Origin: a virus
Lineage: Duplodnaviria; Caudoviricetes
DNA length: 64,000 nt
Reading direction: 5' to 3' (one strand)
IMG/VR virus record: IMGVR_UViG_3300028888_000052
In this document: in pieces, positions 249-61,146 of the stretch
Layout of the letters: each line of letters opens with the position of its first letter
How positions within the stretch are numbered: the first letter of the stretch is position 1
Notes under the pieces: generated by a model
Databases searched by the model: none
What the model was told of the DNA's origin: nothing
Seen by the model: only the letters and a program-made list of their open reading frames with translations
Translations under genes and position numbers: made by a program

Positions 249-713
249 ATGGATAAGAGATATTCAAATAATATTAAAAATATGAAGCCTAGGAGGGATT
301 CAAAATACCACCAAGGTTATGTCCCACAACAATTTTGCAAAAAATTATTTGGATCTACTAAAAATGAACCTATAATTTATCGTTCTGGATTAGAATATCA
401 ATTTATTCAATTTTGTGAGAATAACCCTAAAATCAAGAAATGGGCAAGTGAGCCATTACCAATAGAATATTTCTCAAGATTAGATAATAAATTGTGTAAT
501 TATTATCCTGATTATGTATTAGAGACTGAAGATGGGTCTCATATTATTGTTGAGATAAAACCATATAACCAAACTGTCAAACCTAAAGATAGTGATTCAA
601 GATGGTTAAAAGAACAATGGGTGAAAAATACAGATAAATGGAAATATGCTAATGAATTTGCCCATAAACATAATGCTAAATTCATTATAATTACTGAAAA
701 ATTTTTTAAATAA
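249..713 (+). CDS. Head completion nuclease, T4 gp4-like (TnsA-N/PD-(D/E)xK family)
   Basis: Motifs YHQG, IIYRSGLEYQF..CENNP.IKKWASE, YYPDY, IVEIKP..QT, N..KW..A..F, FIIITE match the T4 gp4 family. Confidence 0.85.
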   Translation: MDKRYSNNIKNMKPRRDSKYHQGYVPQQFCKKLFGSTKNEPIIYRSGLEYQFIQFCENNPKIKKWASEPLPIEYFSRLDNKLCNYYPDYVLETEDGSHIIVEIKPYNQTVKPKDSDSRWLKEQWVKNTDKWKYANEFAHKHNAKFIIITEKFFK

Positions 714-720
714 ATATATT

Positions 721-1404
721 ATGAAAGTAGATATATCAATTTTAATTATTTTATTGAATGATACTGAATTGAATATTTACAAAAATAAAATATTCATTAA
801 TTATTTTTGTAATTATTTAAAAGCAAATAGTATATTTGAAAATTGTGTATTTATATATAGTGGTGAAGAAAATGAAGCTTTGTTAAATGATTTAAAAATA
901 GAAAATAAATATCATGTTTATAATATAGATAAAATATCTCATACAACAGAATATCAAGCTGTTGGTGAATATTTAGAAGAAACTAAAAATAAATGTGATT
1001 GGTTTATTAATTTAGATTTAAGTAATTATAATCCAAATACAATCTATTTATCAATATTAAACATAAATGACCATTATGATTTTATTTTCTTTAAGCATGA
1101 AATAATAGATTTATCTAAATATGAATTAAATTCTGATAATAAGAGAAAATATGAATTCTTATATGAAGATAAAAATAAAATGACTATCAATACTTCTTTA
1201 TTTATTACTAAATCTTCATTTTTCAAAGAATGTTATTATAAAGCAAAAAATGATCCTTTTTTATTCAGTGCCTATTTTTGGAAAGGGAAATATAAAGTAT
1301 TAGAAGATAATGGGTCATTTAGTATTCATCTTGCTAATAAACAACAAGTTGATAACTTCTTTCAATTTTTAGTGCAAATACAAAATCAACAATATAATTT
1401 ATGA
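721..1404 (+). CDS. Hypothetical protein, possibly a degenerate cytidylyltransferase/GT-A fold
   Basis: 227-aa ORF; weak resemblance in motif order to NeuA/KdsB (KNKIFINY, DWFINL, NTSLFITK, FSIHL). Confidence 0.3.
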   Translation: MKVDISILIILLNDTELNIYKNKIFINYFCNYLKANSIFENCVFIYSGEENEALLNDLKIENKYHVYNIDKISHTTEYQAVGEYLEETKNKCDWFINLDLSNYNPNTIYLSILNINDHYDFIFFKHEIIDLSKYELNSDNKRKYEFLYEDKNKMTINTSLFITKSSFFKECYYKAKNDPFLFSAYFWKGKYKVLEDNGSFSIHLANKQQVDNFFQFLVQIQNQQYNL

Positions 1405-1739
1405 AATCAATACAAGAAATAGTTAATGAAGGAAAATCTGGTTCGTTAAAGAAACTTGATATGTTAACAATTATGGTTGCGTATCAAATGTGGAAAGAAT
1501 ATAAGTTGTATGATGAATTCTTTGGAAAATTAGATGAAGAAGAACTTCAAGACTATGATGATCTAAATAAAAGATTAGAACAACTTGATAATGATAATTC
1601 AAGAGTACGTTGGTCTTTACTTAAAGAATATTTTGAAATAATAAATAAGACAGCAGATTATGTATTAAGTTGTCCCGATGATGAATTTTCAAAATCGGAT
1701 AAACGAATTTGGAAAGAGATTAAACAATATGTATCTTAA
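1401..1739 (+). CDS. Putative internal head protein with capsid-targeting tag (MKSIQEIVNE)
   Basis: N-terminal 10-mer resembles T4 IP tag MKTYQEFIAE. Confidence 0.6.
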   Translation: MKSIQEIVNEGKSGSLKKLDMLTIMVAYQMWKEYKLYDEFFGKLDEEELQDYDDLNKRLEQLDNDNSRVRWSLLKEYFEIINKTADYVLSCPDDEFSKSDKRIWKEIKQYVS

Positions 1740-1779
1740 TGAATTTTTAGAATTCATAAATATATGTATCTTAAATAAT

Positions 1780-2268
1780 ATGAAAGGCGAGAAAACAATT
1801 TCAATTATAACTCCTGAAGTAGTACAGGAAGGTCCAATGAAAGCTTCAAAAAATATTAAATCAGTATTTTTAGCTGGTACAATAGATAATGGGGATTCAT
1901 TAAATTGGCAAGATAAAGTAATTATTGAATTGATTAACTTAGGCAAATCTTGTAAAATATATAATCCACGTAGAGAACATTGGAATCCTAATCCATCAAA
2001 AGAAGAAATGGAAGCACAAATAAAATGGGAACAAGAAAGTCTTGATAAAGCTAATATTGTTGCAATGGTTTTATTAGATGATTCAAAATCACCAATTAGT
2101 CTTCTTGAAATGGGACTTTATGCTAAATCAGGTAAATTAGTAGTATTTTGTACTCCTAATTTCTATAGATGGGATAATGTAAGATTAACTTGTGAAAAAT
2201 ATAATATAGAGTTAGTTCAAGATATTAATCCATTAGTAATTGCTAATAAAATCATATCAAAACTATAA
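1780..2268 (+). CDS. Nucleoside 2-deoxyribosyltransferase-like protein
   Basis: VFLAGTI..G...NWQ, IYNPRR, QIKWE, SKSPISLLEMGL; start moved to ATG 1780 to avoid overlap with the upstream ORF. Confidence 0.85.
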   Translation: MKGEKTISIITPEVVQEGPMKASKNIKSVFLAGTIDNGDSLNWQDKVIIELINLGKSCKIYNPRREHWNPNPSKEEMEAQIKWEQESLDKANIVAMVLLDDSKSPISLLEMGLYAKSGKLVVFCTPNFYRWDNVRLTCEKYNIELVQDINPLVIANKIISKL

Positions 2269-2978
2269 TGAAAACTTTAAAAGATACTTTATTTGAAACT
2301 TGTCAATTTTCTCAAATAGGAATTGATGAATCTATGGCTGAACCTAAATCTATATGGGCCGGTAAAGCTGAAGCTAAAATTATTCAAGATAAATTACGAA
2401 ATTTCTTGAAAGGTCAAAAAACTAAAGTTAGTTTGACCAATAAATTAGAATTAGGTAAATTTTTCAAAGCTTTTGTAGCTACTTTAACTTTTGGTAATAC
2501 AGTTAAAAATTTACAAGTTCTTAAAGAATATGGTATGGCTTCAGAACAAGGATTTGCGTCAGTAGTTCTTGGTAATAAAAAAGAATTTGAAGAAAAGAAA
2601 TGGGATACTTCATGTATTAAAAACTTTGATTTATCTGAAATGGAGAAAGAACACCAAAAATGGCAAAAATCAGATGATTATGTAAAAGGTACAGAAGTTG
2701 AAGATGCATCAGATCAAGGGGATTTAGATGATAGAATTCTTATTGTTTATGATAGATGGAATCCTGAAACTGCAGAAGAATTTGATATCGTTGGAAAACG
2801 AGGTAAATCAACAGAACATCATGTTAATATGTGCCGTGTTGAATTTGGTAAAGATTGTGATGTAAAATATTATGATTGTTATCCAATTTTAGCTAAAAAT
2901 TATTTTGGACATCTCGAAGAAATAAAGAAACGTGCTGAACTTGGTATAATGGATATGGCTGCTTATCAACAAATTTAA
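2268..2978 (+). CDS. Putative internal head protein (tag MKTLKDTLFE)
   Basis: Shared N-terminal tag; translationally coupled (TAATG). Confidence 0.55.
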   Translation: MKTLKDTLFETCQFSQIGIDESMAEPKSIWAGKAEAKIIQDKLRNFLKGQKTKVSLTNKLELGKFFKAFVATLTFGNTVKNLQVLKEYGMASEQGFASVVLGNKKEFEEKKWDTSCIKNFDLSEMEKEHQKWQKSDDYVKGTEVEDASDQGDLDDRILIVYDRWNPETAEEFDIVGKRGKSTEHHVNMCRVEFGKDCDVKYYDCYPILAKNYFGHLEEIKKRAELGIMDMAAYQQI

Positions 2979-2988
2979 TATATATAAT

Positions 2989-3804
2989 ATGAAAAATCTA
3001 GAAGCTTATATGAAAAACCTCTATATCTCATTAGAAGGTATAGATGAAGAACTTAAAGATAAGATTAAAAATCTTGAAGGATATGAAATAAATGAATGTT
3101 GTGGTTGTGGATGTTGTTGTGAAGACCCATGCCCATGTGAACCTGAATGTAATAAAACTTGTGCAACTGGTTTATCTGGAAGTACAATAACACCACCAAT
3201 TAATCAATTTGGTAGATTTAATTCAGAACAAGAAATAATTAGTTTATTAGATACAGCACCAAAAGTACTTGATCTTGTTGATATACATAGTCAATTTGCA
3301 AGATTCTTACATGTTGAAGATGTCAATAAAGGATATGTTGAACCTCTTTATTTTGGTAACAAAGAAAATGCTTTGATGGGCACTGGTGATTTAGGAGTAG
3401 TTCGTCAAAATGGTGATATGCCAGCACAAGAAGCTAATCCTGAATCTATTGAACAACTTTATGATGTTGCTACTTACCAAAATAAGAAAATATATAAAGC
3501 TGTTAATGATATTGTAAGTACATTTGAATTGAAATGTCCTGTTGTTGAAACAAAAATAAATGGTGAAGTCCAAGTTTATGCTATTAAACATACAGGTTCA
3601 AATGGTAAAGAAGGTAACATTAAAACATCATTAGAAGAAATAGCTAAAGTTCTTGGTAAATTAGAATCTAGAGCTGATGTTAAATGGGCACAAGTATTAG
3701 ATGTTTCTATTGATAATATTGACGACCTTTATGCATTTGTAATTACTTTTACATTCAATATTGATAAAGTAAGAGAACAAATAAAAGCAAATGAAATTAA
3801 ATAA
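2989..3804 (+). CDS. Putative virion/internal protein with Cys-rich segment
   Basis: Tag-like MKNLYISLE; Cys cluster CCGCGCCCEDPCPCEPECNKTC. Confidence 0.5.
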   Translation: MKNLEAYMKNLYISLEGIDEELKDKIKNLEGYEINECCGCGCCCEDPCPCEPECNKTCATGLSGSTITPPINQFGRFNSEQEIISLLDTAPKVLDLVDIHSQFARFLHVEDVNKGYVEPLYFGNKENALMGTGDLGVVRQNGDMPAQEANPESIEQLYDVATYQNKKIYKAVNDIVSTFELKCPVVETKINGEVQVYAIKHTGSNGKEGNIKTSLEEIAKVLGKLESRADVKWAQVLDVSIDNIDDLYAFVITFTFNIDKVREQIKANEIK

Positions 3805-3830
3805 TATATAAAAATTACTATATTATAAAT

Positions 3831-4154
3831 ATGAAAAGCATTTTAAGTAAAATTAATGAAGGTAAATATTGCCGACTTTTTTCTGAAATCCAAAATGAAG
3901 TAGATAATAAAAAAGGTGAATATCATTCATATGATTTTTCAGATGGTCAGAAAAAATATAAGAAAGGATTCTTGACATTTAATGAACAAGATGGATTCTT
4001 TGGTATTGTTGGATTTAATAATGCTAAAGAGTTTGCTGAAATGATGAATGCTGATGAAGATGCATATAAACAATATGATAATATAAAAGTTGGTGGTTGC
4101 ATTGATTGGGGTGAGCAAAATGGAACTACTTCACAAATATTAAGAATTTGGTAA
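3831..4154 (+). CDS. Putative internal head protein (tag MKSILSKINE)
   Basis: Shared N-terminal tag. Confidence 0.6.
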   Translation: MKSILSKINEGKYCRLFSEIQNEVDNKKGEYHSYDFSDGQKKYKKGFLTFNEQDGFFGIVGFNNAKEFAEMMNADEDAYKQYDNIKVGGCIDWGEQNGTTSQILRIW

Positions 4155-4157
4155 TAT

Positions 4158-4592
4158 ATGAAAAATTTAAAAGAAAAAATATTTGAATCGTCATTTTCGT
4201 TTTCAGAGACTGAATTTGATAAATCTATAAAAGCTCCTGAAAAGAAAAAGGTTCAGAATGCTATATATAAACAATTAGAGAAGACAAATACAACAGGTCA
4301 TTATTATCATGATGAATCTTGGGAAGGCGTCAAATTAGTCAGAAAAGATATTGAAGATGCATTCAAGACTATAAAGAATCCTGAGCACGAATATGAAGTA
4401 TCTATCGCTCCTGATGAAGGTGGATATCGCACATCAAAAGATGGTATGTCTCAATGGAAACAATATAAAGTTGAGATATTTGTTAAAGGAACTGAGCAAC
4501 CATTTATGGGAGGTACTTTGAACTGTCATGCTGCAGGTACGGTTGATGACCCATTTGATACATATGATATGAGTTGTTGCATAGGTTATTAA
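4158..4592 (+). CDS. Putative internal head protein (tag MKNLKEKIFE)
   Basis: Shared N-terminal tag. Confidence 0.6.
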   Translation: MKNLKEKIFESSFSFSETEFDKSIKAPEKKKVQNAIYKQLEKTNTTGHYYHDESWEGVKLVRKDIEDAFKTIKNPEHEYEVSIAPDEGGYRTSKDGMSQWKQYKVEIFVKGTEQPFMGGTLNCHAAGTVDDPFDTYDMSCCIGY

Positions 4593-4610
4593 AATTATAT
4601 AAATAAAGTA

Positions 4611-5387
4611 ATGAAAACTTTAAAAGATCAAATAGTTGAATCTTCATTGATTGAAGAATGTTTAAAAGCTATTAATGAAGGAAAAGACCCTATTAAGCTT
4701 CCATATACATTTGATATTTATAATGAAGGTCCTAAAAACAAAGACTATAAAATAACTAAGTCAAATATTTATAAGATTTTCTTTAGTATAGGTAAATCAG
4801 AAGAATTCAATAAAGAAGATGGTACAAAAGTAGTTAAGTTTGCTGAAAGTCATTCACAAATGATTAGACTTCCTTTACCAGCTGATAGAATTACTTATAA
4901 AGAAGTACCTAACAAAGAAAATACTAAGAATTGGACTGTAGTTCCTGAAATCCGTGAATATACTTGGGCTGGTGCTTGGTATTCTGATAAATTTGTAGAA
5001 TATAACTATAATAAATATAATAATGACTGGAATGAGTGGTTTAAAATGATTAAACCATTTATGAAAGGAAAATTATCGGTTACATTATCAGAAACAGGTG
5101 AAAAGGATCATATTGATTGGAAAATATTAGGTATTACTGTTAATAATGAACAATTCAATAAAGAGCGTGAAGAAAAAATAAAAGAATTGAAAGATCCTAA
5201 ACATCTCGAAGAATGGGCACAAGAAGCGGATGCTAAAGAAAAAGCCGAAATCAAGAAACGTGAAGAAGAGGAAGCAAAAAAGAAGAAAGCTGCCGAAGAA
5301 TGGAAAAAATGGTGGGATTCTTTATCAGATGATGAAAAACTTTCTTGGTCTATGGGATATGGTCAAGGTAAATATCAAGGAGATTAA
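4611..5387 (+). CDS. Putative internal head protein (tag MKTLKDQIVE)
   Basis: Shared tag plus a second INE-GK site; charged coiled-coil C-terminus. Confidence 0.6.
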   Translation: MKTLKDQIVESSLIEECLKAINEGKDPIKLPYTFDIYNEGPKNKDYKITKSNIYKIFFSIGKSEEFNKEDGTKVVKFAESHSQMIRLPLPADRITYKEVPNKENTKNWTVVPEIREYTWAGAWYSDKFVEYNYNKYNNDWNEWFKMIKPFMKGKLSVTLSETGEKDHIDWKILGITVNNEQFNKEREEKIKELKDPKHLEEWAQEADAKEKAEIKKREEEEAKKKKAAEEWKKWWDSLSDDEKLSWSMGYGQGKYQGD

Positions 5388-5404
5388 ATATATAATTATT
5401 TATT

Positions 5405-5656
5405 ATGAAAAATATAAAAGAAGTAATTAATGAAACTCTTGAAGGAAATTATGATTATGAAAAAGACTTAAAAACTCCTGAAGGAAAATTAGGAACTGCC
5501 AGAAATAATATTGAACATGAATTAGGTGGTCAAAGATTTTTATTTGAAATATGGGAATGGGTTGATAAAAATGGAAGTAAAGAACTCCAAAAAGAACTTA
5601 TTCAATGTATTAAAGATATTGCAAAAGCAGAAAAAATTAAAATACCTAAAATATGA
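5405..5656 (+). CDS. Putative internal head protein (tag MKNIKEVINE)
   Basis: Shared N-terminal tag. Confidence 0.6.
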   Translation: MKNIKEVINETLEGNYDYEKDLKTPEGKLGTARNNIEHELGGQRFLFEIWEWVDKNGSKELQKELIQCIKDIAKAEKIKIPKI

Positions 5657-6123
5657 AAGATATAACATCTTTTATAAATGAGAATAAAGAAATAAAACAC
5701 TATGTTGATGGTATATTAGTCAACAAAGATACTGATGAAATCCTATTACTTCAAAGGGCTGGTTATATCAAGCCCTTTGGAGGTAAATGGGGGTTTGTAG
5801 GTGGGTCAATTGATAAAAATGATAAATCATCAAAAGATGCTTTAATTAGAGAAATTAAAGAAGAGACGGGAATAAAACTATCTTTTAATGAAGAACGTTC
5901 TATGAAGCCTTTTGGAAAACAAGAGCATATGGGAGGTTCAAATGACGAAGAAGTAGTTTCAGATACTGAATATTTTATCATTGAAATGGAAACTAAACCA
6001 GAAGTTAAATTATCAAGAGAGCATTCAAGATATAAATGGTTTGATGAGGAATCTATTAAAGAAAAACAAGGTAAATGTGTTCCTGATGTTTTCCATTATA
6101 TACAAAAATATTATGATAAATAA
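5653..6123 (+). CDS. Nudix hydrolase with capsid-targeting-like tag (MKDITSFINE)
   Basis: Nudix box GG.....D.SSKDALIREIKEETGI; ILLLQR; LSREHSRYKW. Confidence 0.9.
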   Translation: MKDITSFINENKEIKHYVDGILVNKDTDEILLLQRAGYIKPFGGKWGFVGGSIDKNDKSSKDALIREIKEETGIKLSFNEERSMKPFGKQEHMGGSNDEEVVSDTEYFIIEMETKPEVKLSREHSRYKWFDEESIKEKQGKCVPDVFHYIQKYYDK

Positions 6124-6788
6124 TGCCTTTAATTCATAAACCAGAACAAACAACATTAGGACATGTATTTACTCTTAAAGATTTAGATAGAAAGATATAC
6201 TCAGAAGATGAGATAAAATATTTTAAAATATTAAATGCTATTAATGAACATCCTTTAGCAAAAAGACCTACATCTATTCGTTCAAAATTAGCATATAAAG
6301 AATTATTGTCTCTTACAAAACCAACTAAAAAATATCTTCTTCCAGGACAAATAGTATTATTCCATTATTCAGAACCTAAGTTTAAAGAAGAATTAGCATA
6401 TTATGATGCTTCACCATTAACATTATTTTGTGGCATTACAAGAACAGATGATGGTAATATTCGTGAAGTAGGTGTTAATCTTCATTATTATCCACCTTTT
6501 ACTCGTACAAGAATTATTACAGAAATATATCAACATTTCAAACCTTATTTTGATAAAAACTTTAATGAAGTATCAGGTAAACCTAACACTTGGATTTCAT
6601 ATAAAGCTATAAAGCATCTTACAAAAGCTAATCAAAAATTAGGATTTGGAATTAAGATGTATATTCCTGTATTACGTGGGGCATCTTATGTATTACCAAC
6701 TAGATTAGTTCCAACAGCTTGTTTTACTGAAGGTCACTTCTCTAAAGCAACATTACAACAAATATTCCATTTCTGGAGACAATTCTAG
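6123..6788 (+). CDS. DNA end protector protein, T4 gp2-like
   Basis: PGQIVLFHY..PKFKEEL.YYD.SPL...GVNLHYYPP..R, typical of the gp2 family. Confidence 0.75.
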   Translation: MPLIHKPEQTTLGHVFTLKDLDRKIYSEDEIKYFKILNAINEHPLAKRPTSIRSKLAYKELLSLTKPTKKYLLPGQIVLFHYSEPKFKEELAYYDASPLTLFCGITRTDDGNIREVGVNLHYYPPFTRTRIITEIYQHFKPYFDKNFNEVSGKPNTWISYKAIKHLTKANQKLGFGIKMYIPVLRGASYVLPTRLVPTACFTEGHFSKATLQQIFHFWRQF

Positions 6789-6830
6789 TAAAAGAATTAT
6801 TTTTATATATAAATTGAAATAAATAAAGAT

Positions 6831-7847
6831 ATGAGAAATTTTACACAATTATTTGAATCAGCTAAGACAACTGATAAACAACCAGGAAATGATTTGCAAA
6901 ATACTGGTGTAACTAACCATTATACACCAATAGAAAATGTATTAACAAATATTAAAAATCTTTTCTGTAGTAGATTAGGAGTAGTTGCTTCAATTGGTGA
7001 AGATAATGTTTCAATTAAATTACAAAGTACAAAATTTGTAGATGAACAATCAATTAATGCTGTATTATATGAACAATTAGATAGATTTACTAATTTGGCA
7101 AATTATATAATGCAACAAGGTTTAGATAAGATGACTAAAATAAATCTTGGTATGTATTATGTTGTATATTTTTCACCAAGTGATGTAAAAACTGCTAAAG
7201 ACCCTCAAACTATGGAGCCAAATGCTATTTTAGTTCCTAAAGAAGTTAAAGAATCTATATTAGATGAATTTGAATTCACCACAATAATTAAAGAAGATGA
7301 TGCAGAAGAAGAAATAAAGGATGTTACTTTAGAAAAAGTTCTTGAACTTGTTGATTCAAAAGATAAAGTTAAAGCCGCTAAACAATTAGAATTATTAGTT
7401 GCTCAAGAAATTGAATTACCAAGAGAATTTTATTTTGCCGGCATTAAATTCAAGAATGGTGAAGAAGCTATAGCACTTCGTTGGAAATATACTAAGAAGC
7501 TTCCAACCGGACAATCAACTGAATCTGTACGTTCTATTATGCACATATTTGGTAAAGGAGATAAAGCTATTTGGGTACAAGATTTTGATAAAGAATCTAT
7601 TGTTCAATTACCAGAAGAAGTTAAGAAACTTATTGAATCAATACTTGATATGTTAGAAGCAGACAAGACTGATGATCCAGCTATCTTCAAACTTACAGGT
7701 GAACGTAAAGAACGTGAAGATAATAAGGATAAAAATGAGGAAGATAAAGATAAAGACTCCAAAGATGAAGATTCAAAAGATAAAAACTCAAACAACGATG
7801 ATGATGAGGATGATGATTCAAGAGGAGACAATTCAGATGATGTATAA
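6831..7847 (+). CDS. Putative head/core protein (tag MRNFTQLFE) with acidic low-complexity tail
   Basis: Tag-like N-terminus, internal V/I-x-E sites, D/E/K-rich C-terminus. Confidence 0.5.
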   Translation: MRNFTQLFESAKTTDKQPGNDLQNTGVTNHYTPIENVLTNIKNLFCSRLGVVASIGEDNVSIKLQSTKFVDEQSINAVLYEQLDRFTNLANYIMQQGLDKMTKINLGMYYVVYFSPSDVKTAKDPQTMEPNAILVPKEVKESILDEFEFTTIIKEDDAEEEIKDVTLEKVLELVDSKDKVKAAKQLELLVAQEIELPREFYFAGIKFKNGEEAIALRWKYTKKLPTGQSTESVRSIMHIFGKGDKAIWVQDFDKESIVQLPEEVKKLIESILDMLEADKTDDPAIFKLTGERKEREDNKDKNEEDKDKDSKDEDSKDKNSNNDDDEDDDSRGDNSDDV

Positions 7848-7852
7848 ATAAT

Positions 7853-8212
7853 ATGAAAAATATAAAAGATTATATCATTGAAGGTAGAACAATTGATACT
7901 GTTAAAATAAAGACTAAGAAAGGTAAAGAATTAGAACCAGTATGGTATGCTTATGATGAAGAATCATTAGATAATTTATTGAAAAAAGTAAAGTATACAA
8001 GTCAATATTGGATAGATAAAGGTATTTATCTTTCAACATTAAAGAATAAATCTTCTTGGGAAGTTGATACGGATGAAGAATATAAATTCCATATTTATCA
8101 ACCAGGAGCAGATTTCTTCTATTGTGATGATAATGGAGAATCATATACAAGACAAGAGATTTTAGATTTGTTTAATAAAGAAGAAACAATGATAGTTGTA
8201 TTAAATAAATAA
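7853..8212 (+). CDS. Putative internal head protein (tag MKNIKDYIIE)
   Basis: Shared N-terminal tag. Confidence 0.6.
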   Translation: MKNIKDYIIEGRTIDTVKIKTKKGKELEPVWYAYDEESLDNLLKKVKYTSQYWIDKGIYLSTLKNKSSWEVDTDEEYKFHIYQPGADFFYCDDNGESYTRQEILDLFNKEETMIVVLNK

Positions 8213-8224
8213 ATTAAATATATA

Positions 8225-8431
8225 ATGAGAAGTTTAACACAAATTATTCAAGAAGCTGCTGAAGGTAGAGAAACATTTGAAGTAGTTTTACCTGATGGAT
8301 TAATGGATAGTTTTTATTATTCTGAAGAAGAAGCACAAAAACGAATTGATGAATTAGTAAAAGCAAATTCTGATGAACATTTCAAACCTACTATCAAAAA
8401 AGGAAACGATAAAGATTATGTTAAAAAATAA
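8225..8431 (+). CDS. Putative internal head protein (tag MRSLTQIIQE)
   Basis: Shared N-terminal tag. Confidence 0.6.
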   Translation: MRSLTQIIQEAAEGRETFEVVLPDGLMDSFYYSEEEAQKRIDELVKANSDEHFKPTIKKGNDKDYVKK

Positions 8432-8432
8432 A

Positions 8433-8466
8433 AATTAGAGCTGTTAATTCAGCTCTAATTCTTTTT
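8433..8466. terminator. Bidirectional intrinsic terminator
   Basis: aattagagctg-ttaatt-cagctctaatt between convergent genes. Confidence 0.8.
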
Positions 8467-9427
8467 TAAAATATTCTATTGTTTTTAATAATCCTTCTTT
8501 TAATTGAATTTTCGGTTTATAACCAAACATACAAAATGCTTTAGCAATATCAGCTTTACGTTGAATAGGATCATCTTTAGGTAATTCTTTATAGATGATT
8601 TTTGATTTATTAGGAATTAATTCTAATACTAATTGAGCTAATTCATTTATAGTAAACTCATTTGGATTACCAATATTTACAGGTCCCATTTCATTATCAA
8701 TTTCCATAAAATCAATTATTCCTTCTATTAAATCATCTATATATTGAAATGACCTTGTTTGATGACCATCACCATAAATAGTTATATCTTTATTTTGTAA
8801 AGCTTGACATATAAAATTTGAAATAACTCTTCCATCATTAGGATCCATGTAAGGACCATAAGTATTGAATATTCTTATAATTTTTGTTTGGACTCCTAAT
8901 TTATTCCATTCATATAAAATAGTTTCGGCAATACGTTTTCCTTCATCATAACATGATCTCGGCCCTAATATATTAACATTACCATTATAATGTTCATTTT
9001 GTGGGTGATGTAATAAATCTGGATTACCGTATACTTCTGATGTTGAAGCATGTAATATTTTACATTGATATCTTTGAGCCACTTTACAAATATTATCTAC
9101 AGCTAATGATACTTTAATTGTGTGTAAAGGATTTTGCATATATTTAGGTGGAGATGCCGGACAAGCTAGATTATAAATTTCATCAACCTTATTATCTAAC
9201 ATTTCGTCTACTAATTCATATATTGTCTTTTCAAAAAAAGATTGGTTTGTAATATCAACAATATAAAAATGATAATTTGGTAATTTTATAAAATTATATA
9301 TATTAGTATTTCTACCAGTTGAAAAATCATCTATACATAATATTTTACAATTACCAATTTCTAATAGTTTCTTAGTTAAGTTTGTACCTATAAACCCCGC
9401 GCCACCAAATATTATTATTGATTTCAT
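8444..9427 (-). CDS. UDP-glucuronate decarboxylase (UDP-xylose synthase), extended SDR
   Basis: GGAGFIG, IYNLACPASPPKY, ASTSEVYG, GPRSCYDEGKR, RIFNTYGP, DGRVISNFI, GDGHQTRSFQY. Confidence 0.95.
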   Translation of the reverse strand: MKSIIIFGGAGFIGTNLTKKLLEIGNCKILCIDDFSTGRNTNIYNFIKLPNYHFYIVDITNQSFFEKTIYELVDEMLDNKVDEIYNLACPASPPKYMQNPLHTIKVSLAVDNICKVAQRYQCKILHASTSEVYGNPDLLHHPQNEHYNGNVNILGPRSCYDEGKRIAETILYEWNKLGVQTKIIRIFNTYGPYMDPNDGRVISNFICQALQNKDITIYGDGHQTRSFQYIDDLIEGIIDFMEIDNEMGPVNIGNPNEFTINELAQLVLELIPNKSKIIYKELPKDDPIQRKADIAKAFCMFGYKPKIQLKEGLLKTIEYFKKELELN

Positions 9428-9633
9428 TTAATTAAAATATGTTAAATACTATTTTAATAAAAATAATTTATTATTGGTAAATTTTCTGCATATATACCAA
9501 TATTTAGTGTTTAACTTAGAAGAATTACTTATATAAAATATAATAATGCAGATTTGGTTATAGTTTATATAAGATTAGTTCACGAATAACAGTAGTTGTT
9601 CATTTTAAATATACCTAATTTAAACATATAAAA

Positions 9634-10065
9634 ATGAAGAATTTTGATTATTTAACAAAAGAGTTGATTGATACTCTTAGTTTTACTACTATGAATCAGG
9701 ATCGTGAAGCATATTCTGATGTAAATATTAATGGTCGTAATTATGCAATGTTTGGAACTTTGCAAGCTATTACTTTTGTTGGTTTAGTATATGAAGATGC
9801 ATTTGGTAATAAAATAATGCATGTTGGTATTTCAAAACAACACCCAAATGACTCTAAATGTAATAAGCAAATAGCTTATGAAAAAGCCACATTAAAGGCT
9901 ATGGATAACCCAGACATGGTATTTAATACCGTACCAGATAATGTTACAATGTTTAATTTCCGCCACATGATGATGGCTTATTATGATGCTATGGAAGTAC
10001 AATTTATTCGTACTAAGAAGGAAATTGAACTTATGGGAGATGATCCTAAAAAATATAATCGTTAA
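9634..10065 (+). CDS. Hypothetical protein
   Basis: 143-aa ORF with phage-like codon usage. Confidence 0.7.
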   Translation: MKNFDYLTKELIDTLSFTTMNQDREAYSDVNINGRNYAMFGTLQAITFVGLVYEDAFGNKIMHVGISKQHPNDSKCNKQIAYEKATLKAMDNPDMVFNTVPDNVTMFNFRHMMMAYYDAMEVQFIRTKKEIELMGDDPKKYNR

Positions 10066-10071
10066 AAAATA

Positions 10072-10659
10072 ATGGATGAAAATTTAATACATAAATTCGG
10101 TTATGCCGAAATGTATGAATGGGCTAATCCAGAAATGCCTTATGTAGGTAGATTTGTACAATTTAATGGTACTGACAAAATTGAATTATGTAATGATCCA
10201 TATCAAGTTATAGGAGTTACTACAGTTAATAGAGTAGCTCTTTCTGATAACCCAGATGAATGGCCTCATAAATTTATGGGTAATGAGTTTGGAGATACAT
10301 ATGTTCAAAATAAACATGTTGCTAGGGCTGAAAAATTTAAAGATGAACAAGATAATTTTGAGTTTATAAGAACTTTTGAATCATTTGAAAGTAATCCATT
10401 ATTAAGCGAAAATTATAATCAATCTTTAAGTCCTTATGTATCAAGACTTTATAGACAAGAATGGCAACCAGTAACTATTTTAGGAAAATGTATTGTTGAA
10501 GATGATGGAACATTACAACCGGGTATGTATTGTACAGTATATGATGGAGAAGACCAATCCAAGTTTGGTATAGCTATTAAAGCACATAGAGATAGTCAAA
10601 TAAAATATTATGTCATCTCTCGTTATTCTGAAAAAACATGTTTAATCTTATTTAAATGA
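10072..10659 (+). CDS. Peptidase G2 / intramolecular chaperone (IMC)-like domain protein, stand-alone
   Basis: YAEMYEW..GRFV, IGVTT, W..K...NEFG, YVSRLYRQEWQPVTILGK..V.DDGTL.PG.YC. Confidence 0.7.
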   Translation: MDENLIHKFGYAEMYEWANPEMPYVGRFVQFNGTDKIELCNDPYQVIGVTTVNRVALSDNPDEWPHKFMGNEFGDTYVQNKHVARAEKFKDEQDNFEFIRTFESFESNPLLSENYNQSLSPYVSRLYRQEWQPVTILGKCIVEDDGTLQPGMYCTVYDGEDQSKFGIAIKAHRDSQIKYYVISRYSEKTCLILFK

Positions 10660-11615
10660 AACATAAGTTAAGTATAATTACAACATATTATAATGCTCAA
10701 GACTACATTATAGATAGTATTAGTAGCGTTAATAATCAACAATTTGACCCGGAATTTGTTGAAGTAGAATATGTGTTGGTAAATGACCATACACCAGATC
10801 ATACTGAAGATATAATTAGAGATTATCTTTATCATCAATCTAATCCAAATATCAATTTTAATATGGTAACTACTCCACAAAATTTAGGTTGTGGTGGTGC
10901 AAGAAAATTTGGTATTGATAATGCTTCAGGTGATTATTTGATGTTCTTAGATGCGGATGATTTTTATATTAATGATGATTTTATAAATAGAGCTATTCAT
11001 GATATTGTAGAAAATGATTGTGATTTAGTCGAATATGGATTATTGATGAATTATAAAAATCGTGGTCCTCGAGAAATGAAAGTTTCTGAAAAAATTGTAG
11101 CTGAAAATGACGGAGAAAATTTTGAAGTAATGCTTTTTAAAGAAAACAAGATTAAATTCTTTGTTTGGACTAAGATATTGAAAAAGTCATTATCACAAAC
11201 ATATCCTTATTCAACTAAAAGAACATATGAAGATGTAGAAACTATTCCAGTTTGGTTATCACATGCCAAGAAAATAGTTATTATGCCTTCTATGGAAATT
11301 AATTATAGAGCTACGGAAAATTCTATCATTCGTAATAATATTCTAACAACTAGATTAGATACTATTGGAACTATGATAGAACATTTTGAAAGATTTAAGG
11401 ATAATAGAAATATCTTAAAAGCCATTTATATTAGAGCTTCATTAGATCTTAAAGCTGTTTTATTAAATGGCCATACAAGTGAAGATCCTGGATTTAATCA
11501 AATGTCTAAATATAATACTTATATGTTAAGTTATATTTATCCTGAAAAATATAAAGACTATACATATAATATTGATGTAGAGGAACAAATCCAAAAACAA
11601 TTGATAGAGGAGTAA
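10656..11615 (+). CDS. Glycosyltransferase family 2
   Basis: LSIITTYYN, LVNDHTPD, NLGCGGARKFGI..ASGDYLMFLDADD, YED. Confidence 0.9.
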   Translation: MKHKLSIITTYYNAQDYIIDSISSVNNQQFDPEFVEVEYVLVNDHTPDHTEDIIRDYLYHQSNPNINFNMVTTPQNLGCGGARKFGIDNASGDYLMFLDADDFYINDDFINRAIHDIVENDCDLVEYGLLMNYKNRGPREMKVSEKIVAENDGENFEVMLFKENKIKFFVWTKILKKSLSQTYPYSTKRTYEDVETIPVWLSHAKKIVIMPSMEINYRATENSIIRNNILTTRLDTIGTMIEHFERFKDNRNILKAIYIRASLDLKAVLLNGHTSEDPGFNQMSKYNTYMLSYIYPEKYKDYTYNIDVEEQIQKQLIEE

Positions 11616-11634
11616 TTAAATTACTCCTTTATTT
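11608..11634 (+). terminator. Intrinsic terminator
   Basis: aggagtaat-taa-attactcct followed by T-rich tract. Confidence 0.7.
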
Positions 11635-11672
11635 GTCTATTTTAGAATATAAATATATGTTAATAAATATTA

Positions 11673-12446
11673 ATGAAGTGTTATAATGCATTTGGCATAA
11701 AGCCTACAAACTCATTTACATCAGCAGGTTCTGATTATTATATTCCAAATTTAACAACACCAACTCAAATACAAAGAGCTTATAAAGCATTTGAAAAATC
11801 TTATAACAAAACTGGTGAAGAAATTAATAGATTAATAAAGAAATTCGAAGCAGTTATTGATGATCAACATCATGCTAATTTACAACATCAAATTCCAAAC
11901 TTGATTCATTTGTATTTGGCATTATATGATCCAAATCTTGAGGAAATAAAGCAACAATCAACTATTCTTGCAATTCATGCATTCATAGATGAATTTGTTA
12001 TTTATGATGAAGAGCAAGATAAGGTTGGTCTTAAGATGTTACTTAATGATACTTTATTTATAAATTCAGGTATTAAAGTTGCATTAGATACAGTTTTATC
12101 AGATAAAAATGACCAAGATGTAGTATCTTTTTTAAGAAAACTTGGTATTGGAGTAGCTGGTTTATATGTTAATAAGTCAGGTAAAGGTAATGCAGGATGG
12201 GATGTTCGTGCATGTCTTGTAGACGAAGATTATGCAGGATTTGTACATCTTTCACAGGCATATACAAAAGAACTTATTGATGAAGGACAAAATATTGTTT
12301 ATTGTGGAGATAAGTTAACACAAATGATGCTTATTCCTGTTTTCCATGATGAATATGTTGATACCGATGAGGATAATTATAATAAAATAATGGCGAATTC
12401 AAAACGAGGAGATAAGGGTTTTGGAAGTCAGGATATTAAACATTAA
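11673..12446 (+). CDS. dut: Trimeric dUTPase with large insertion
   Basis: Motif 1 SAGSDY, motif 2 NKSG, motif 3 LVDEDYAG, motif 4 GDKLTQM, motif 5 RGDKGFGS. Confidence 0.8.
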   Translation: MKCYNAFGIKPTNSFTSAGSDYYIPNLTTPTQIQRAYKAFEKSYNKTGEEINRLIKKFEAVIDDQHHANLQHQIPNLIHLYLALYDPNLEEIKQQSTILAIHAFIDEFVIYDEEQDKVGLKMLLNDTLFINSGIKVALDTVLSDKNDQDVVSFLRKLGIGVAGLYVNKSGKGNAGWDVRACLVDEDYAGFVHLSQAYTKELIDEGQNIVYCGDKLTQMMLIPVFHDEYVDTDEDNYNKIMANSKRGDKGFGSQDIKH

Positions 12447-12448
12447 TT

Positions 12449-12778
12449 ATGGCCAAAAAGAAAATTTATATATCTTTACCAATTGCATTTCAAGAAGATA
12501 CCGTTTATAAACGTAATGAATGTGCAAAGACGTATTTAGAGATGAAATATCCAAAATATGATTATGTTTCTCCAATAGATGCTAATCATATTGATGATGA
12601 AGCTTTAGGTAATCATTTGGCTATTGAACGTACAGCATATTACATGGGTAAAGATATTGAACAAGTTATTTTATGTGACGCTATACTTATGTGTCCTGGA
12701 TGGGAAAATTCAAAGGGATGTAAAGTAGAAAAGTTTACAGCAGAAACTTATGGAAAAGAAGTTTTATATCTTAAATAA
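12449..12778 (+). CDS. DUF4406-like (nucleoside deoxyribosyltransferase fold) protein
   Basis: KIYISLPI, YMGKDI..VILCDAILMCPGWENSKGCKVE...A..YGK. Confidence 0.8.
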   Translation: MAKKKIYISLPIAFQEDTVYKRNECAKTYLEMKYPKYDYVSPIDANHIDDEALGNHLAIERTAYYMGKDIEQVILCDAILMCPGWENSKGCKVEKFTAETYGKEVLYLK

Positions 12779-12806
12779 AAAGGAAGTAGCTTAAGCTACT
12801 TCCTTT
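12779..12806. terminator. Bidirectional intrinsic terminator
   Basis: aaaggaagtagc-ttaa-gctacttccttt between convergent genes. Confidence 0.85.
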
Positions 12807-12808
12807 AT

Positions 12809-13210
12809 TTATTTTCCTACATAAATCATTTCATCAGTAGTTGAATTATCATGTAAAATCTTATCTGTTGCACTAAGTATAAAACCATATTCATCACTTG
12901 AATCAATAAGAACTTTAGCTTTCTTTATTTCATCTTCATAACTATTATACTTGTCATCATCAACAATAGCATAATTCTTGATAATTCTCTTGTTATAATC
13001 ACCATTAATAAGATCATGTTCACCAGCCCTAGTCATGATAATATCAACATCTGTATAATTATGGTCTTTCATCCATTTCTCTATAGCTTCAAAAAAACCA
13101 TCCATATCATTTTCTTGATAATAATTAGGGTCATTAAAATGTAACTTACAAATTTTCTTAAGACCAGTTAATTTTGAACCTTCGAATATAAAATTAGTAA
13201 TGTCTTTCAT
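12809..13210 (-). CDS. Putative internal head protein (tag MKDITNFIFE)
   Basis: Shared N-terminal tag. Confidence 0.6.
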   Translation of the reverse strand: MKDITNFIFEGSKLTGLKKICKLHFNDPNYYQENDMDGFFEAIEKWMKDHNYTDVDIIMTRAGEHDLINGDYNKRIIKNYAIVDDDKYNSYEDEIKKAKVLIDSSDEYGFILSATDKILHDNSTTDEMIYVGK

Positions 13211-13226
13211 TGTTTTTATTTATTAT

Positions 13227-14864
13227 TTATTTATCTATTTCGTTATCTGCTATAATATAATCATCCAATGAGATGCTTTCGAGAACTATATCACGTTTCT
13301 TAGCTTCATCTTCAATTTTTTTCATTTCAGCTTCATAACCAAGTTCTTTACAAACTTTATAGTTCATCTTAAGTTTTGCATCAGAACAATTAGAAAGATT
13401 TTGTTTACGAGTACCTTCATGCCATGCTTTCATTTTATCATAAGCAGCTGCATTAGCACCTTTACTCATTTTTGTATCTTTACCACGTTCTTTCTTTTCT
13501 TTTGGTTCTGGGTTTTCAAGTGGTTTTTCAATTGGTTCTGCATCAGGTTCCATGTCACCTTCAACATATGTTTGTACTAATGAAAGAGAATATGTAAACA
13601 GATTTTTCTTTTCATATCCTTCATAGTTGAAATCCATGTCTTTGACTAATTTTTCAAAATTTTTCTTTGCTTCTTCTTTAGCTTGTCCTTTTGTCTTTGA
13701 ATGATTTCCCCAATAACCAGCTGAATCATCATAGATTTTTTCCCAATGATTTTTTACATATTCACTTTGTTTTCTTGCATTTGCTTTATGCCAAGCTTCA
13801 GAAACTTTCTTAAATAATTCAATCATTTTTTCAGATGCTTTATCCTTATAAATTGAAATTGCATCATCAAGTTGCATATCAATATTACCATCAAGAACTT
13901 TTCTATCACCTGTATGTATGATAACAAATTGTTTTTTCTTTGTATCTATAGCTAATGCCCTATATCCATAATCTTTCTTTCCACGCATATACTGTTTATC
14001 ATAAACAAATGCGCCAGATAATCCAGAAAGTGATTTCAAATCTTTAGTCTTGAATACTTCTTGTAATTTATTAAAAAGAACTGGTTCAAGAACGCTCATT
14101 ATTAAAGATCTAAATTCCTTATATCCATTAGAAACAGCATCATTTAATTTCTGGTATTCAGGATTGTTCTTAGTTTCTTCATCCCAAGATTTTAAGTTAT
14201 TTTGCTTAAGCCATGCAGAACGTTTGTCTTCAAGTTCTTTAATTGATGCATTAGTAAGATTCCAATAGCGAACTGTAAATTTGCCATCAATTATATCCCA
14301 TGACAAATGATCAGGTACAGCAACATAACGGGCATCAAACTCATCTTTCTTATTTTGTATCTTTTCAGCCTTTTGGTCATCATAAGCTTTAGCATCCTTA
14401 TCTCCTTTTTCCGCTAATTCTTTGAACTTACCATCTTTGTCATCATATTTACTCCAATATTTAGCAATATAATCTTCAAGATAATAACCTGCTTTGATAT
14501 CAGCAATACAACCAGTATTACTTCCATTAGACATAATAGCTATCCAACCATGAACATGGAAGTCATCTTTACCATTAGCTTTCTTAATAGTTACATAATA
14601 ATCATGTGAGCCACCAGCAATAGCACCAGCATCACCAGCTCTGTCAGAAGTAATAACATCATATACATGACCTTGCTTGTCTTTTATATAGCCATTACCT
14701 GAACCATCAAAATATGAGAACTCATCATCATATCCAGGATCTTTAGTGTCAAACATATCACCACCCCTGAAATGAACAGTCTCTTTACGTTCAGTTCTTT
14801 TATACTTTTTAAGATCAGATGGCTTACCCGATGCTTCAAATATTTTTAATAAAATATCTTTCAT
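13227..14864 (-). CDS. Putative internal head protein, 545 aa (tag MKDILLKIFE)
   Basis: Shared N-terminal tag; Lys-rich; additional VLE-S site near C-terminus. Confidence 0.6.
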   Translation of the reverse strand: MKDILLKIFEASGKPSDLKKYKRTERKETVHFRGGDMFDTKDPGYDDEFSYFDGSGNGYIKDKQGHVYDVITSDRAGDAGAIAGGSHDYYVTIKKANGKDDFHVHGWIAIMSNGSNTGCIADIKAGYYLEDYIAKYWSKYDDKDGKFKELAEKGDKDAKAYDDQKAEKIQNKKDEFDARYVAVPDHLSWDIIDGKFTVRYWNLTNASIKELEDKRSAWLKQNNLKSWDEETKNNPEYQKLNDAVSNGYKEFRSLIMSVLEPVLFNKLQEVFKTKDLKSLSGLSGAFVYDKQYMRGKKDYGYRALAIDTKKKQFVIIHTGDRKVLDGNIDMQLDDAISIYKDKASEKMIELFKKVSEAWHKANARKQSEYVKNHWEKIYDDSAGYWGNHSKTKGQAKEEAKKNFEKLVKDMDFNYEGYEKKNLFTYSLSLVQTYVEGDMEPDAEPIEKPLENPEPKEKKERGKDTKMSKGANAAAYDKMKAWHEGTRKQNLSNCSDAKLKMNYKVCKELGYEAEMKKIEDEAKKRDIVLESISLDDYIIADNEIDK

Positions 14865-20106: not shown

Positions 20107-21249
20107 ATGAAAAAGTTTATTTTGACATTGTTCATCGCTTTGGCGATGGTATTTACAGCTAATGCTCAGATAGCTACTGAGAATTCAAAGGTTTTGGACA
20201 ATACTTATGTAGGTGTTGAGGCAGGTGTTTCTACTCCTCTCAATTTCAATTCTGTATTTCCAGTAAATCCTATTGTAGGTATTAAGCTCGGTAAAGAGTT
20301 GACACCAGTATTTGGTTTTGAAGTAGAAGGTCTTGTTACTTCAGGCGATAATTTCTATCGTTATGGATATAATTCTTCTATACTCCCTTGGGATGAAGGT
20401 GCATTTAATGTTCATAAGGATGGTTCAATGAATACATTTGTTAAGGCTACAAATGTTGGCTTGAATGGTGTAATTAATTGGTCAAATCTTTTATTTGGAT
20501 ATCAAGGAACACCTCATTTCTTTGAAGTAAAGACTAATACCGGTTTGGGATGGTTGCATTATTTTGGTGATTTTACTACTAATAAAGTAGGTGGTTATAA
20601 ACCTGGTGGCCAACGTAATGTATTGACTGCTAAGACCGCTATTGATTTTGCATTTAATCTTGGTAATACTAAGGCTCATACCATAACTGTATCTCCTGGT
20701 ATTTATTGGGGATTGAATGATGAAAGCAACATTAAGTTCAATAAGAACTATGCTCAATTTGGTATTATGGTAGGTTATGCTTATCATTTCAAGACTTCTA
20801 ATGGTACTCGTCATTTCAAAACTTATGATGTAGGTGCTATGGTTGGTGAAATTGATCGTTTGAATCAAGAACTTGCTAAGAAGCCTACTGAAGTTATTAA
20901 GTACGTAGAAGTTCCTGCTAAGAATGTAGAGCAACCTGTTACAAATGCAGTTCAACACGCTACAGGTTTTGGAGTAAATGAAACAGTTTACTTTGGTTAC
21001 GATAGCGCTGAACTTGATGCCCGTGCTAAGGAAACACTTGATAAGCTTGGTGAAAATGGCATTTATGTAGTTAAAGCTTATGCTTCAAGTGAAGGTTCAA
21101 CAGAATATAACAAAGCTCTTTCACAACGTCGTGCTGATGCTGTAAAAGCATACCTTGAGGAACGTGGTTGTAGAGTTGAATCTGCTACTGGTTATGGAGT
21201 ACTTTTTGGTACAACTACTGGTCGTGTAGCTGTTGTTACAAACAAGTAA
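20107..21249 (+). CDS. OmpA-family outer membrane protein (Bacteroidales type)
   Basis: Signal peptide (..ANA-Q), beta-barrel region (GKELTPVFGFEVEG), C-terminal OmpA domain (VYFGYDSAEL, YASSEGSTEYNKALSQRRADAVKAYL). Confidence 0.9.
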   Translation: MKKFILTLFIALAMVFTANAQIATENSKVLDNTYVGVEAGVSTPLNFNSVFPVNPIVGIKLGKELTPVFGFEVEGLVTSGDNFYRYGYNSSILPWDEGAFNVHKDGSMNTFVKATNVGLNGVINWSNLLFGYQGTPHFFEVKTNTGLGWLHYFGDFTTNKVGGYKPGGQRNVLTAKTAIDFAFNLGNTKAHTITVSPGIYWGLNDESNIKFNKNYAQFGIMVGYAYHFKTSNGTRHFKTYDVGAMVGEIDRLNQELAKKPTEVIKYVEVPAKNVEQPVTNAVQHATGFGVNETVYFGYDSAELDARAKETLDKLGENGIYVVKAYASSEGSTEYNKALSQRRADAVKAYLEERGCRVESATGYGVLFGTTTGRVAVVTNK

Positions 21250-39350: not shown

Positions 39351-39722
39351 ATGAAAACAATTACAGAAATTATTACAGAGTCTTCTAATATAACAAGCAA
39401 TATCAATTGGATTGATTGGAATGAGGACAATCTAAATAATGTCTTTAAAGAGGTAATTGATGAGATTCTTGAAAATAAAGAACTTCGATATAAAGTAAAT
39501 ATTCTTGTAATTGCTAAGGAGAAGAAGTCAAAAGAAAATTGTGATAAGTTCAAAGGTAATTACAAATTGATGCCTACCGAGGTTGAGATTTATTGGAACA
39601 CAAATACTAATTCTGGTATGCCTGAGCCGAAAATTTCATTTTGGTCAAAGAATATCGCAAATAATACGATTACTAAGTTTGTTCCAATGGAGATGGCTCT
39701 ACCTAAAGAATTTCAGAAGTAA
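39351..39722 (+). CDS. Hypothetical protein with capsid-targeting-like tag (MKTITEIITE)
   Basis: Shared N-terminal tag; sits in a promoter-gene-terminator cassette. Confidence 0.6.
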   Translation: MKTITEIITESSNITSNINWIDWNEDNLNNVFKEVIDEILENKELRYKVNILVIAKEKKSKENCDKFKGNYKLMPTEVEIYWNTNTNSGMPEPKISFWSKNIANNTITKFVPMEMALPKEFQK

Positions 39723-41431: not shown

Positions 41432-41450
41432 AAATTTATTATGATTAATC

Positions 41451-60938: not shown

Positions 60939-61146
60939 TGAAATGAATGAAGATGAATATTTTTATAAAGATTTAGAAGAATATTTTCCGATAGATTTAT
61001 TAACACAAGAAGAAAGAGAACATGCTATTCAATTAAATAAAGAATGTGGATGGTCTCAATCAGTTAAATATATTAAAGAATGTCGTTCTGATTTTGGATT
61101 AAAAAGTTCTAAAATTTATTACGATTTGTATATAAAGGAAAAATAA
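60928..61146 (+). CDS. Small protein with ribosomal L7/L12 CTD-like motif
   Basis: QSVKYIKE...FGLKSSK.YYD resembles xAIKxxRexxGLKEAKxxVD. Confidence 0.4.
   Translation: MDFNEMNEDEYFYKDLEEYFPIDLLTQEEREHAIQLNKECGWSQSVKYIKECRSDFGLKSSKIYYDLYIKEK

Follow-up and report, generated by a model that had tools for sequence, protein, structure and literature searches.

A shared N-terminal decapeptide resembling the T4 capsid targeting sequence on diverse proteins of an uncultivated tailed phage

Why should more than a dozen genes of one phage, encoding proteins that otherwise look unrelated, begin with nearly the same ten amino acids? The question is raised by a stretch of DNA from an uncultivated virus of the Caudoviricetes (IMG/VR record IMGVR_UViG_3300028888_000052; the whole stretch, 64,000 nucleotides, is hereafter called the window), where a first-pass annotation had noticed such an N-terminal tag on neighboring open reading frames (ORFs). 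The internal proteins of phage T4 are described as bearing a capsid targeting sequence (CTS) that is cut by the prohead protease gp21 (Mullaney and Black 1996, as summarized in PMC9026906 and PMC3012670). We propose, with a probability of about 0.7, that the decapeptide of the window is a T4-type CTS and prohead-protease propeptide, carried by a much enlarged and rapidly exchanged repertoire of head-internal proteins. According to this model, which is built on sequence comparison, the tag would bind the scaffolding core during head assembly and the protein would be built into the prohead. A gp21-type prohead protease would cut after the Glu of an (I/L/V)-x-E site, ahead of a small residue, and the mature protein would be retained in the head with the DNA and enter the host at infection. 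Many cargo proteins may act at once on entry, for example against modification-dependent restriction, by extension from T4 Ip1-3, each of which inhibits a different GmrSD restriction enzyme (PMC12373910).

We found the tag on 13 ORFs of the window, as a ten-mer in 12 and as a nine-mer in one, with the consensus M-K/R-x-(I/L/F)-x3-(I/L/V)-x-E and then a small residue. Position 4 is I or L in the ten-mers, and both I/L/V at position 8 and Glu at position 10 are kept in 12 out of 12; the nine-mer, which starts the ORF at 6831, has F at position 4 and ends in L-F-E. The residue following the Glu is G in four cases, S in four, T in two, A in two and N in one, and hence G/S/T/A in 12 out of 13. When all six reading frames of the window were translated and searched with a strict pattern, M[KR][STND][ILF]x(2-3)[ILVF]xE, 13 occurrences were returned, and in each of them the Met is the first to follow a stop codon. 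When chance was modeled from the position-specific N-terminal residue frequencies of the untagged ORFs, 0.12 matches were expected among 111 ORFs as compared to the 13 observed (P = 8e-23, binomial test). As a further background, a relaxed pattern was present in 2 of the 964 ORFs around gp4 of 76 distant T4-like phages (P = 7e-12, Fisher test). Tagged ORFs account for 12 of the 21 ORFs within positions 1401-14864 and for only one, at 39351, of the 90 outside (P = 9e-10). The tag does not have the 10-20-residue hydrophobic core after a basic N-region that marks Sec, Tat and lipoprotein signal peptides. It consists of ten residues alternating polar, acidic and hydrophobic and ends in Glu, in contrast to the genuine signal peptide of the OmpA-family ORF at 20107.

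To compare the window with its relatives, we relied on two close relatives from IMG/VR, contigs G001 (163 kb) and G002 (158 kb), which are both syntenic with the entire window and share 86-90% identity with it in gp2. Their completeness was estimated by CheckV at 64% and 55%, respectively. Tags are borne by 31 of 233 ORFs in G001 and by 21 of 206 in G002, in several clusters. We trained a position weight matrix (PWM) on the tags of these two contigs alone, with those of the window excluded to prevent circularity. Eleven window ORFs scored between 9 and 19 bits and the ORF at 13227 scored 7.9, with the runner-up at only -0.2, and none of the 414 internal Met sites of the window scored above 8. 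Such a matrix had been suggested at first pass. The N-termini listed in the first-pass annotation were all found in place, while its count of 14 tagged proteins comes down to the 13 given above. The protein that drops out is encoded by a conserved Cys-rich ORF (2989..3804, +, 271 amino acids (aa)), whose 16-residue N-terminus MKNL...ISLE↓G (here and below, the arrow marks the boundary after the Glu) is non-canonical and doubtful. The nine-mer MKNLYISLE listed within it at first pass was rejected as a tag: the third residue before the boundary is not I/L, the matrix gives it a negative score, and the orthologue in G002 has Asn in place of the Glu. This ORF is a backbone gene, with 58-77% identity in G001 and G002. 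Soon after the N-terminus, its product contains an unusual Cys-rich stretch, CCGCGCCCEDPCPCEPEC, and matches no family.

The same matrix recognizes the CTS of T4. By reading NC_000866 directly, we confirmed that ipII and ipIII start with MKTYQEFIAE↓A and gp24 with MAKINELLRE↓S. When positions 1-126 kb of T4 were scanned, gene 61.1, ipII and ipIII were the top three of 413 ORFs. Gene 61.1 (NC_000866 19130-18966, -; 54 aa) lies in an early region, starts with MKTFKEFIKE and outscores both ipII and ipIII. The tag of the window is like that of T4 IPI, IPII and IPIII, as well as Alt and gp24, in being an MK tag of approximately 10 residues, with a hydrophobic position 4, I/L at position 8, Glu at position 10 and then a small residue. 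Position 4 differs in that it is I/L/F here and Tyr in T4, and position 7 is not always hydrophobic here.

We then considered what is constrained within the tag. Codons are mixed, with ATA, TTA and ATT at position 4 and five different codons at position 8, and therefore the constraint is at the protein level. Across 113 orthologues of the 545-aa cargo protein encoded at 13227, M1, K2, I8 and E10 do not vary; position 4 accepts I or L alone, and A occupies position 11. Tag positions 3, 5, 6 and 7 have entropies of 1.1-2.2, as compared to 0.5 for the mature protein. The profile is that of a putative degenerate signal, in which four positions are frozen and the variable positions outpace the body of the protein. 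In T4, suppressor analysis of IPIII assigned CTS residues 4 and 7 to targeting and residues 8 and 10 to processing (PMC9026906). As aligned, the constrained positions here include the T4 CTS determinants 4, 8 and 10.

The end of the tag behaves as a border. Pairs of orthologues diverge within the tag and become collinear immediately after the Glu. Among the homologues of the tagged NUDIX protein encoded at 5653, 114 of 120 fit the tag pattern, and two others carry Tyr at position 4, like T4. An untagged variant of the same protein (P0200, P0204) aligns only from query residue 11 onward, with 67% identity. P0200 and P0204 are 143 aa long and lie on short metagenome contigs; over the C-terminal 90 residues they are near-identical to the phage protein, whereas a different, MutT-like sequence makes up the N-terminal third, and this variant may therefore be a recombinant. 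In these alignments, Glu10 is the module boundary. The tag falls outside the folded part of the protein, since the NUDIX domain (Pfam) begins at residue 20 and the first 57 residues in an AlphaFold2 model of the 545-aa protein have a predicted local distance difference test score (pLDDT) of approximately 30. We found no real pairs of tagged and untagged homologues within the window, G001 and G002. In the G001 homologue of the 7853 product (85914-86303), an additional 11-residue unit ending in LLE↓G precedes the conserved GRTID. Leaders are apparently duplicated in this homologue (ILE↓N and LLE↓G), in the 4611 product (IVE↓S and INE↓G) and in the 2268 product (LFE↓T and IDE↓S), which recalls the multiple cleavage sites reported for propeptides in other phages.

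Behind the boundary, no resemblance among the tagged proteins was detected. Their mature parts range from 58 to 535 residues; all pairwise BLASTP comparisons gave E > 0.2 and phmmer returned no match. The mature parts of the tagged proteins of the window thus appear mutually unrelated. The gene content also changes rapidly between close relatives. Seven tagged ORFs of the window are without homologue in G001 or G002, and in strain L113, whose gp2 is 97% identical, three other tagged ORFs replace those at 4611 and 5405. The backbone conserved in the window, G001 and G002 includes gp4, the 2989 ORF, NUDIX, gp2, 6831, an epimerase and a glycosyltransferase, among others. These comparisons indicate that the tagged genes sit mainly in what seem to be hyperplastic slots beside the gp4 and gp2 genes, as in T-even phages. 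The internal proteins of T-even phages are themselves diverse, share only the CTS and occupy hotspot loci, with at least 10 known (PMC3012670, PMC12373910). In T4 itself, about 2.2 kb separate ipI from genes 2 and 4. As in T4, unrelated mature proteins are thus encoded at variable loci near genes 2 and 4 in a phage with T4-type virion genes. What differs is the number: the 64 kb of the window contain 13 and each 160-kb relative 21-31 (10-13% of the ORFs), against three internal proteins in T4. The cargo also differs from the T4 internal proteins in being mildly acidic and in including a NUDIX hydrolase and a 545-aa orphan, and the host is probably a rumen member of the Bacteroidota.

The two virion genes around which the tagged genes gather were identified as the first-pass annotation had proposed. 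The gp4-type head completion/head closure protein is encoded at 249..713 (+; phrog_218, E = 1.5e-34; PF08722, E = 7e-16), with 73-81% identity in G001 and G002, and the gp2-type DNA end protector at 6123..6788 (+; phrog_429, E = 1.7e-16). Both are untagged backbone genes. In T4, gp2 is itself a virion-borne, injected protein.

Downstream of gp4, the first tagged cargo candidate is encoded at 1401..1739 (+; 112 aa; MKSIQEIVNE↓GKSG; 12.8 bits). Its G001 orthologue, 78% identical, lies at another locus and starts with MKTINEIINE↓AKAG. A nucleoside 2-deoxyribosyltransferase-like ORF occupies 1678-2268, and the next candidate is at 2268..2978 (+; 236 aa; MKTLKDTLFE↓T), where the possible second site falls at residues 19-21. 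The latter has no homologue in G001 or G002 and no match in Pfam, PHROG, NCBIfam or ESM Atlas. Past the 2989 ORF, the candidate at 3831..4154 (+; 107 aa) starts with MKSILSKINE↓GKY and its homologue in L113, 57% identical, with MKDLVKKINE↓GKD. It is followed by those at 4158..4592 (+; 144 aa; MKNLKEKIFE↓SS; 18 bits), whose G002 orthologue starts with MKTLKDKIFE↓SY, and at 4611..5387 (+; 258 aa; MKTLKDQIVE↓SS), whose possible second site is at residues 21-23. The 4611 gene has no homologue in G001 or G002, with other tagged ORFs in its slot in L113, and the next one, 5405..5656 (+; 83 aa; MKNIKEVINE↓T; 18.7 bits), is likewise without homologue in G001 and G002. The tagged NUDIX hydrolase, at 5653..6123 (+; 156 aa; MKDITSFINE↓NKEIK), matches PF00293 over residues 20-138 (E = 6e-17). 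We considered it as an orthologue of T4 NudE and rejected this assignment, since only the Nudix box is in common.

Beyond gp2, the nine-mer MRNFTQLFE↓SAKT starts a 338-aa protein with a strongly acidic C-terminal tail (6831..7847, +). The first-pass annotation had listed this nine-mer as a variant of the tag, and this reading holds. The boundary (L/F)-x-E↓(S/T) is kept among its orthologues, with the variants L-F-E↓S and I-V-E↓S and a ten-mer ending in L-V-E in G002. Two further candidates are at 7853..8212 (+; 119 aa; MKNIKDYIIE↓GRTID) and 8225..8431 (+; 68 aa; MRSLTQIIQE↓AAEG), the second with a 91% identical homologue in L113 and none in G001 or G002. On the minus strand lie 12809..13210 (-; 133 aa; MKDITNFIFE↓GSK; 17.5 bits), with no homologue in G001 or G002, and 13227..14864 (-; 545 aa; MKDILLKIFE↓ASGKPSDL), the latter a widely conserved orphan with 304 homologues. 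The isolated candidate, at 39351..39722 (+; 123 aa; MKTITEIITE↓SS; 18.7 bits), is directly downstream of the gene for RtcB, and in G001 a different tagged ORF (275 aa, MKSLSQIIKE↓S) follows RtcB at the equivalent position.

Apart from the NUDIX domain, no cargo family was matched by Pfam, PHROGs or NCBIfam. ESM Atlas gave no usable match for the 545-aa protein either. The core of its AlphaFold2 model has a pLDDT of approximately 90; Foldseek against the PDB returned only hits with E > 0.4, and VIA-align gave Z scores up to 6.3 over helical segments only, which speaks neither for nor against a new fold.

Several observations weigh against a CTS. T4-type heads mature via gp21-type cleavage, and because of this an active protease is expected in this lineage. 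We searched for the head module with the PF03420 and PF07068 profiles, which in G001 and G002 matched nothing but a short gp21 paralogue, and, by tblastn, with T4 gp21, gp22, gp23, gp24, gp67 and gp68 and the head proteins of PTm1 and pT24. The tblastn search returned the portal and TerL, both of T4 type and encoded in G001 and G002, but neither a capsid protein nor a scaffold nor an active protease; none of these three came to light either when 20 large ORFs of G001 were scanned against PHROGs. Intact gp21, gp22 and gp23 were thus absent by search from the window, G001 and G002, the last two being contigs that are 55-64% complete. As gp22, gp23 and gp24 are missing from G001 and G002, part of the head module is likely to lie elsewhere in the genome.

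The sole gene of the gp21 family, at 41451-41858 (+; 135 aa), has copies in G001 (58644-59075, -) and G002 (60552-60986, -), all of 135-143 aa. Its closest match is the N-terminal protease domain in the protease-scaffold fusion of PTm1 (37% identity, E = 2e-13). The motifs GExxHP and (V/I)SSRG are intact in T4, PTm1 and pT24, whereas the short ORFs read KFAPRI, KLNPRM or NFAPRM. None of the three short copies retains the catalytic Ser motif, and those of the window and G002 have lost the His as well. Judged by these motifs, 41451-41858 is an inactive gp21 paralogue, and its inactivity too weighs against the proposal; that the gp21 fold family occurs in the lineage, as a paralogue, counts in favor. 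The paralogue is conserved among small genes, distant from the virion genes. A diverged paralogue of the prohead protease is also reported for SPN3US (PMC5694885).

Four other points count on the same side. First, only 8 of the 12 ten-mers of the window have a hydrophobic residue at position 7, which contributes to targeting in T4; this position also varies across orthologues and so seems to agree only partly with T4. Second, the mature cargo is mildly acidic (isoelectric point 4.8-6.3), whereas T4 IPII and IPIII are basic. Third, a large family of G001 paralogues has Lys after the Glu (MKNLQDIIQE↓KLQIGSK), an atypical, non-small residue. Fourth, no upstream late-promoter signal sets the tagged genes apart. 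Strings resembling TATAAATA occur near some starts, yet they are found upstream of untagged genes too, and the enriched upstream k-mers turned out to be the 3' ends of tandem paralogues. The tagged genes lie close together and run in the same direction as gp4 and gp2. Near-identical contigs from three sheep metatranscriptome libraries cover tagged and untagged genes alike, and DNA carry-over is possible in these libraries.

The alternative that survives best keeps the tag as a prohead-targeting and protease signal, and makes most of its bearers scaffold or core proteins (compare T4 gp67, gp68 and gp22), which would be degraded and expelled at maturation. The very acidic C-terminal tail of the 6831 product, encoded next to gp2, resembles that of T4 gp67, and this product is possibly a prohead-core-like protein. 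In G001, an ORF directly after the portal starts with MQSLKDYILLFE↓A and stands in place of T4 genes 67 and 68, and the acidic rather than basic cargo fits assembly proteins as well. However, most tagged ORFs are dispensable and strain-specific, which ill suits assembly components, and an intact NUDIX enzyme is among the tagged proteins. The latter show no enrichment of internal (I/L/V)-x-E sites, whereas T4 gp22 has many, and we therefore do not propose polyproteins here. We consider this explanation unlikely.

The G001 ORF just mentioned (145984-146436, +) encodes 150 aa, with the 12-residue tag-like leader MQSLKDYILLFE↓APSE, straight after the portal, where T4 has its prohead-core genes 67 and 68. 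Next come the genes for a gp5-like spike OB-domain protein and for TerL, in that order, and the arrangement of the head and packaging genes therefore differs from that of T4.

A second alternative is that the shared N-terminus has nothing to do with capsids and serves in recognition by a modifying enzyme, in localization, in degradation, or as an enhancer of translation initiation in a host whose ribosomes do not rely on Shine-Dalgarno sequences. It would account for the failure to find an active protease, and no Shine-Dalgarno sequence lies upstream of the tagged ORFs, whose codon 2 is AAA in 11 of 12 ten-mer tags. The mixed codons behind the constrained amino acid classes make a signal at the RNA level unlikely. 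Also against this alternative, the constrained positions include the T4 CTS determinants 4, 8 and 10, the matrix trained on the relatives picks out T4 ipII and ipIII, and the tagged ORFs gather around the virion genes 4 and 2, with only one of 90 ORFs elsewhere bearing the tag. No candidate partner enzyme was noticed, although no systematic search for one was made. Taken together, these data render a non-capsid signal quite improbable. Finally, it is very improbable that the tagged genes arose from one ancestor by duplication and divergence, with the decapeptide as a relic rather than a functional module: G001 does contain at least 13 true paralogues with MKNLQDIIQEKLQIGSK, but the mature parts of the window share no detectable similarity over 58-535 residues, the NUDIX fold has an untagged relative with homology from residue 11, and four frozen positions among others that evolve faster than the body are the signature of a signal.

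The G001 paralogues (at, for example, 10621, 21232, 40041-41759 and 86305-95410) have in common the 18-residue N-terminus MKNLQDIIQEKLQIGSK(S/T), composed of the tag and a conserved extension with Lys after the Glu. About four copies are present in G002 and none in the window.

A propeptide on a head-internal repertoire, as we propose, has a second precedent in giant phages. In phiKZ, 201phi2-1 and SPN3US, ejection proteins and inner-body proteins carry long propeptides, and gp21-like proteases cut after Glu (PMC5694885, PMC7411985). The lineage of the window shares with them many Glu-cut head-internal proteins and multiple propeptide sites (both predicted here) and a diverged prohead-protease paralogue. 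It differs in that giant-phage propeptides are mostly longer than 100 residues and end in S/A/G-x-E, whereas here a decapeptide ends in I/L/V-x-E and homology starts at residue 11 (22 if duplicated). Moreover, the virion genes here (gp2, gp4, portal and TerL) are of T4 type, unlike those of the giant phages.

The CTS principle is already published for T-even phages. What would be new here is its scale and host lineage, together with a cargo that is acidic and includes an enzyme, and leaders made of two units. The first-pass picture of a T4-type tag added as a module to varied proteins encoded close to genes 4 and 2 agrees with all the sequence-level tests made, while the candidacy of these proteins for anti-defense roles derives from analogy with T4 Ip1-3, by which an anti-restriction role of the cargo is plausible. 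If the tag works as in T4, an N-terminal motif flags dozens of proteins per genome that are delivered before expression. The phage-defense biology of gut and rumen Bacteroidota is little explored, and, if the proposal is true, hundreds of related rumen contigs would become a catalogue of candidate counter-defense or takeover factors for these hosts. The proposal would further illustrate to what extent the CTS mechanism can be enlarged and how it evolves through cassette exchange. A bolder version, possible but on balance doubtful, is that this rumen lineage devotes at least a tenth of its genes to dozens of capsid-delivered, rapidly exchanged, pre-transcriptional effectors, including a NUDIX enzyme, against the defenses of Bacteroidota; the tag would then serve as a sequence handle to extract new anti-defense families straight from metagenomes. 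Equally tentative is its example of a target, the restriction of sugar-modified DNA; the window encodes sugar-handling enzymes.

As to the origin of this DNA, the G+C content is approximately 28% across the window, and DNA near-identical to it is contained in sheep, goat and bovine gut metagenomes. The phage belongs to a T4-type lineage of the rumen or sheep gut and is abundant in sheep rumen fluid. The host is probably a member of the Bacteroidota, because start codons are without Shine-Dalgarno sequences and the OmpA-family ORF (20107-21249) has a Bacteroidota-style signal peptide. A search of GenBank phages with the window DNA gave no close relative. The cultured phages closest in gp2, with 25-34% identity, infect Tenacibaculum and Chryseobacterium and are T4-like jumbo phages. 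The Tenacibaculum phages pT24 and PTm1 have few plausible tags each and were discarded as informative relatives, being too distant from this clade. A gp4 profile scan of IMG/VR and a scan of one metagenome yielded no more extended contigs of the lineage. One orthologue, P0108, sits on a 260-kb contig.

The two groups of tagged genes in the window are separated by a cluster of sugar and nucleotide enzymes (8444-12778), which contains an NAD-dependent epimerase/dehydratase (minus strand), a Peptidase_G2 intramolecular-chaperone protein, a GT2 glycosyltransferase, a weak dUTPase-like ORF and DUF4406. Farther downstream are an IMPDH/GMP-reductase-like ORF (32427-33761) and the RtcB RNA ligase (37945-39261). 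A giant ORF at 21375-31355 (+) encodes 3326 aa; its counterparts in G001 (1694 aa) and G002 (3727 aa) are 29-37% identical to it over parts of their length.

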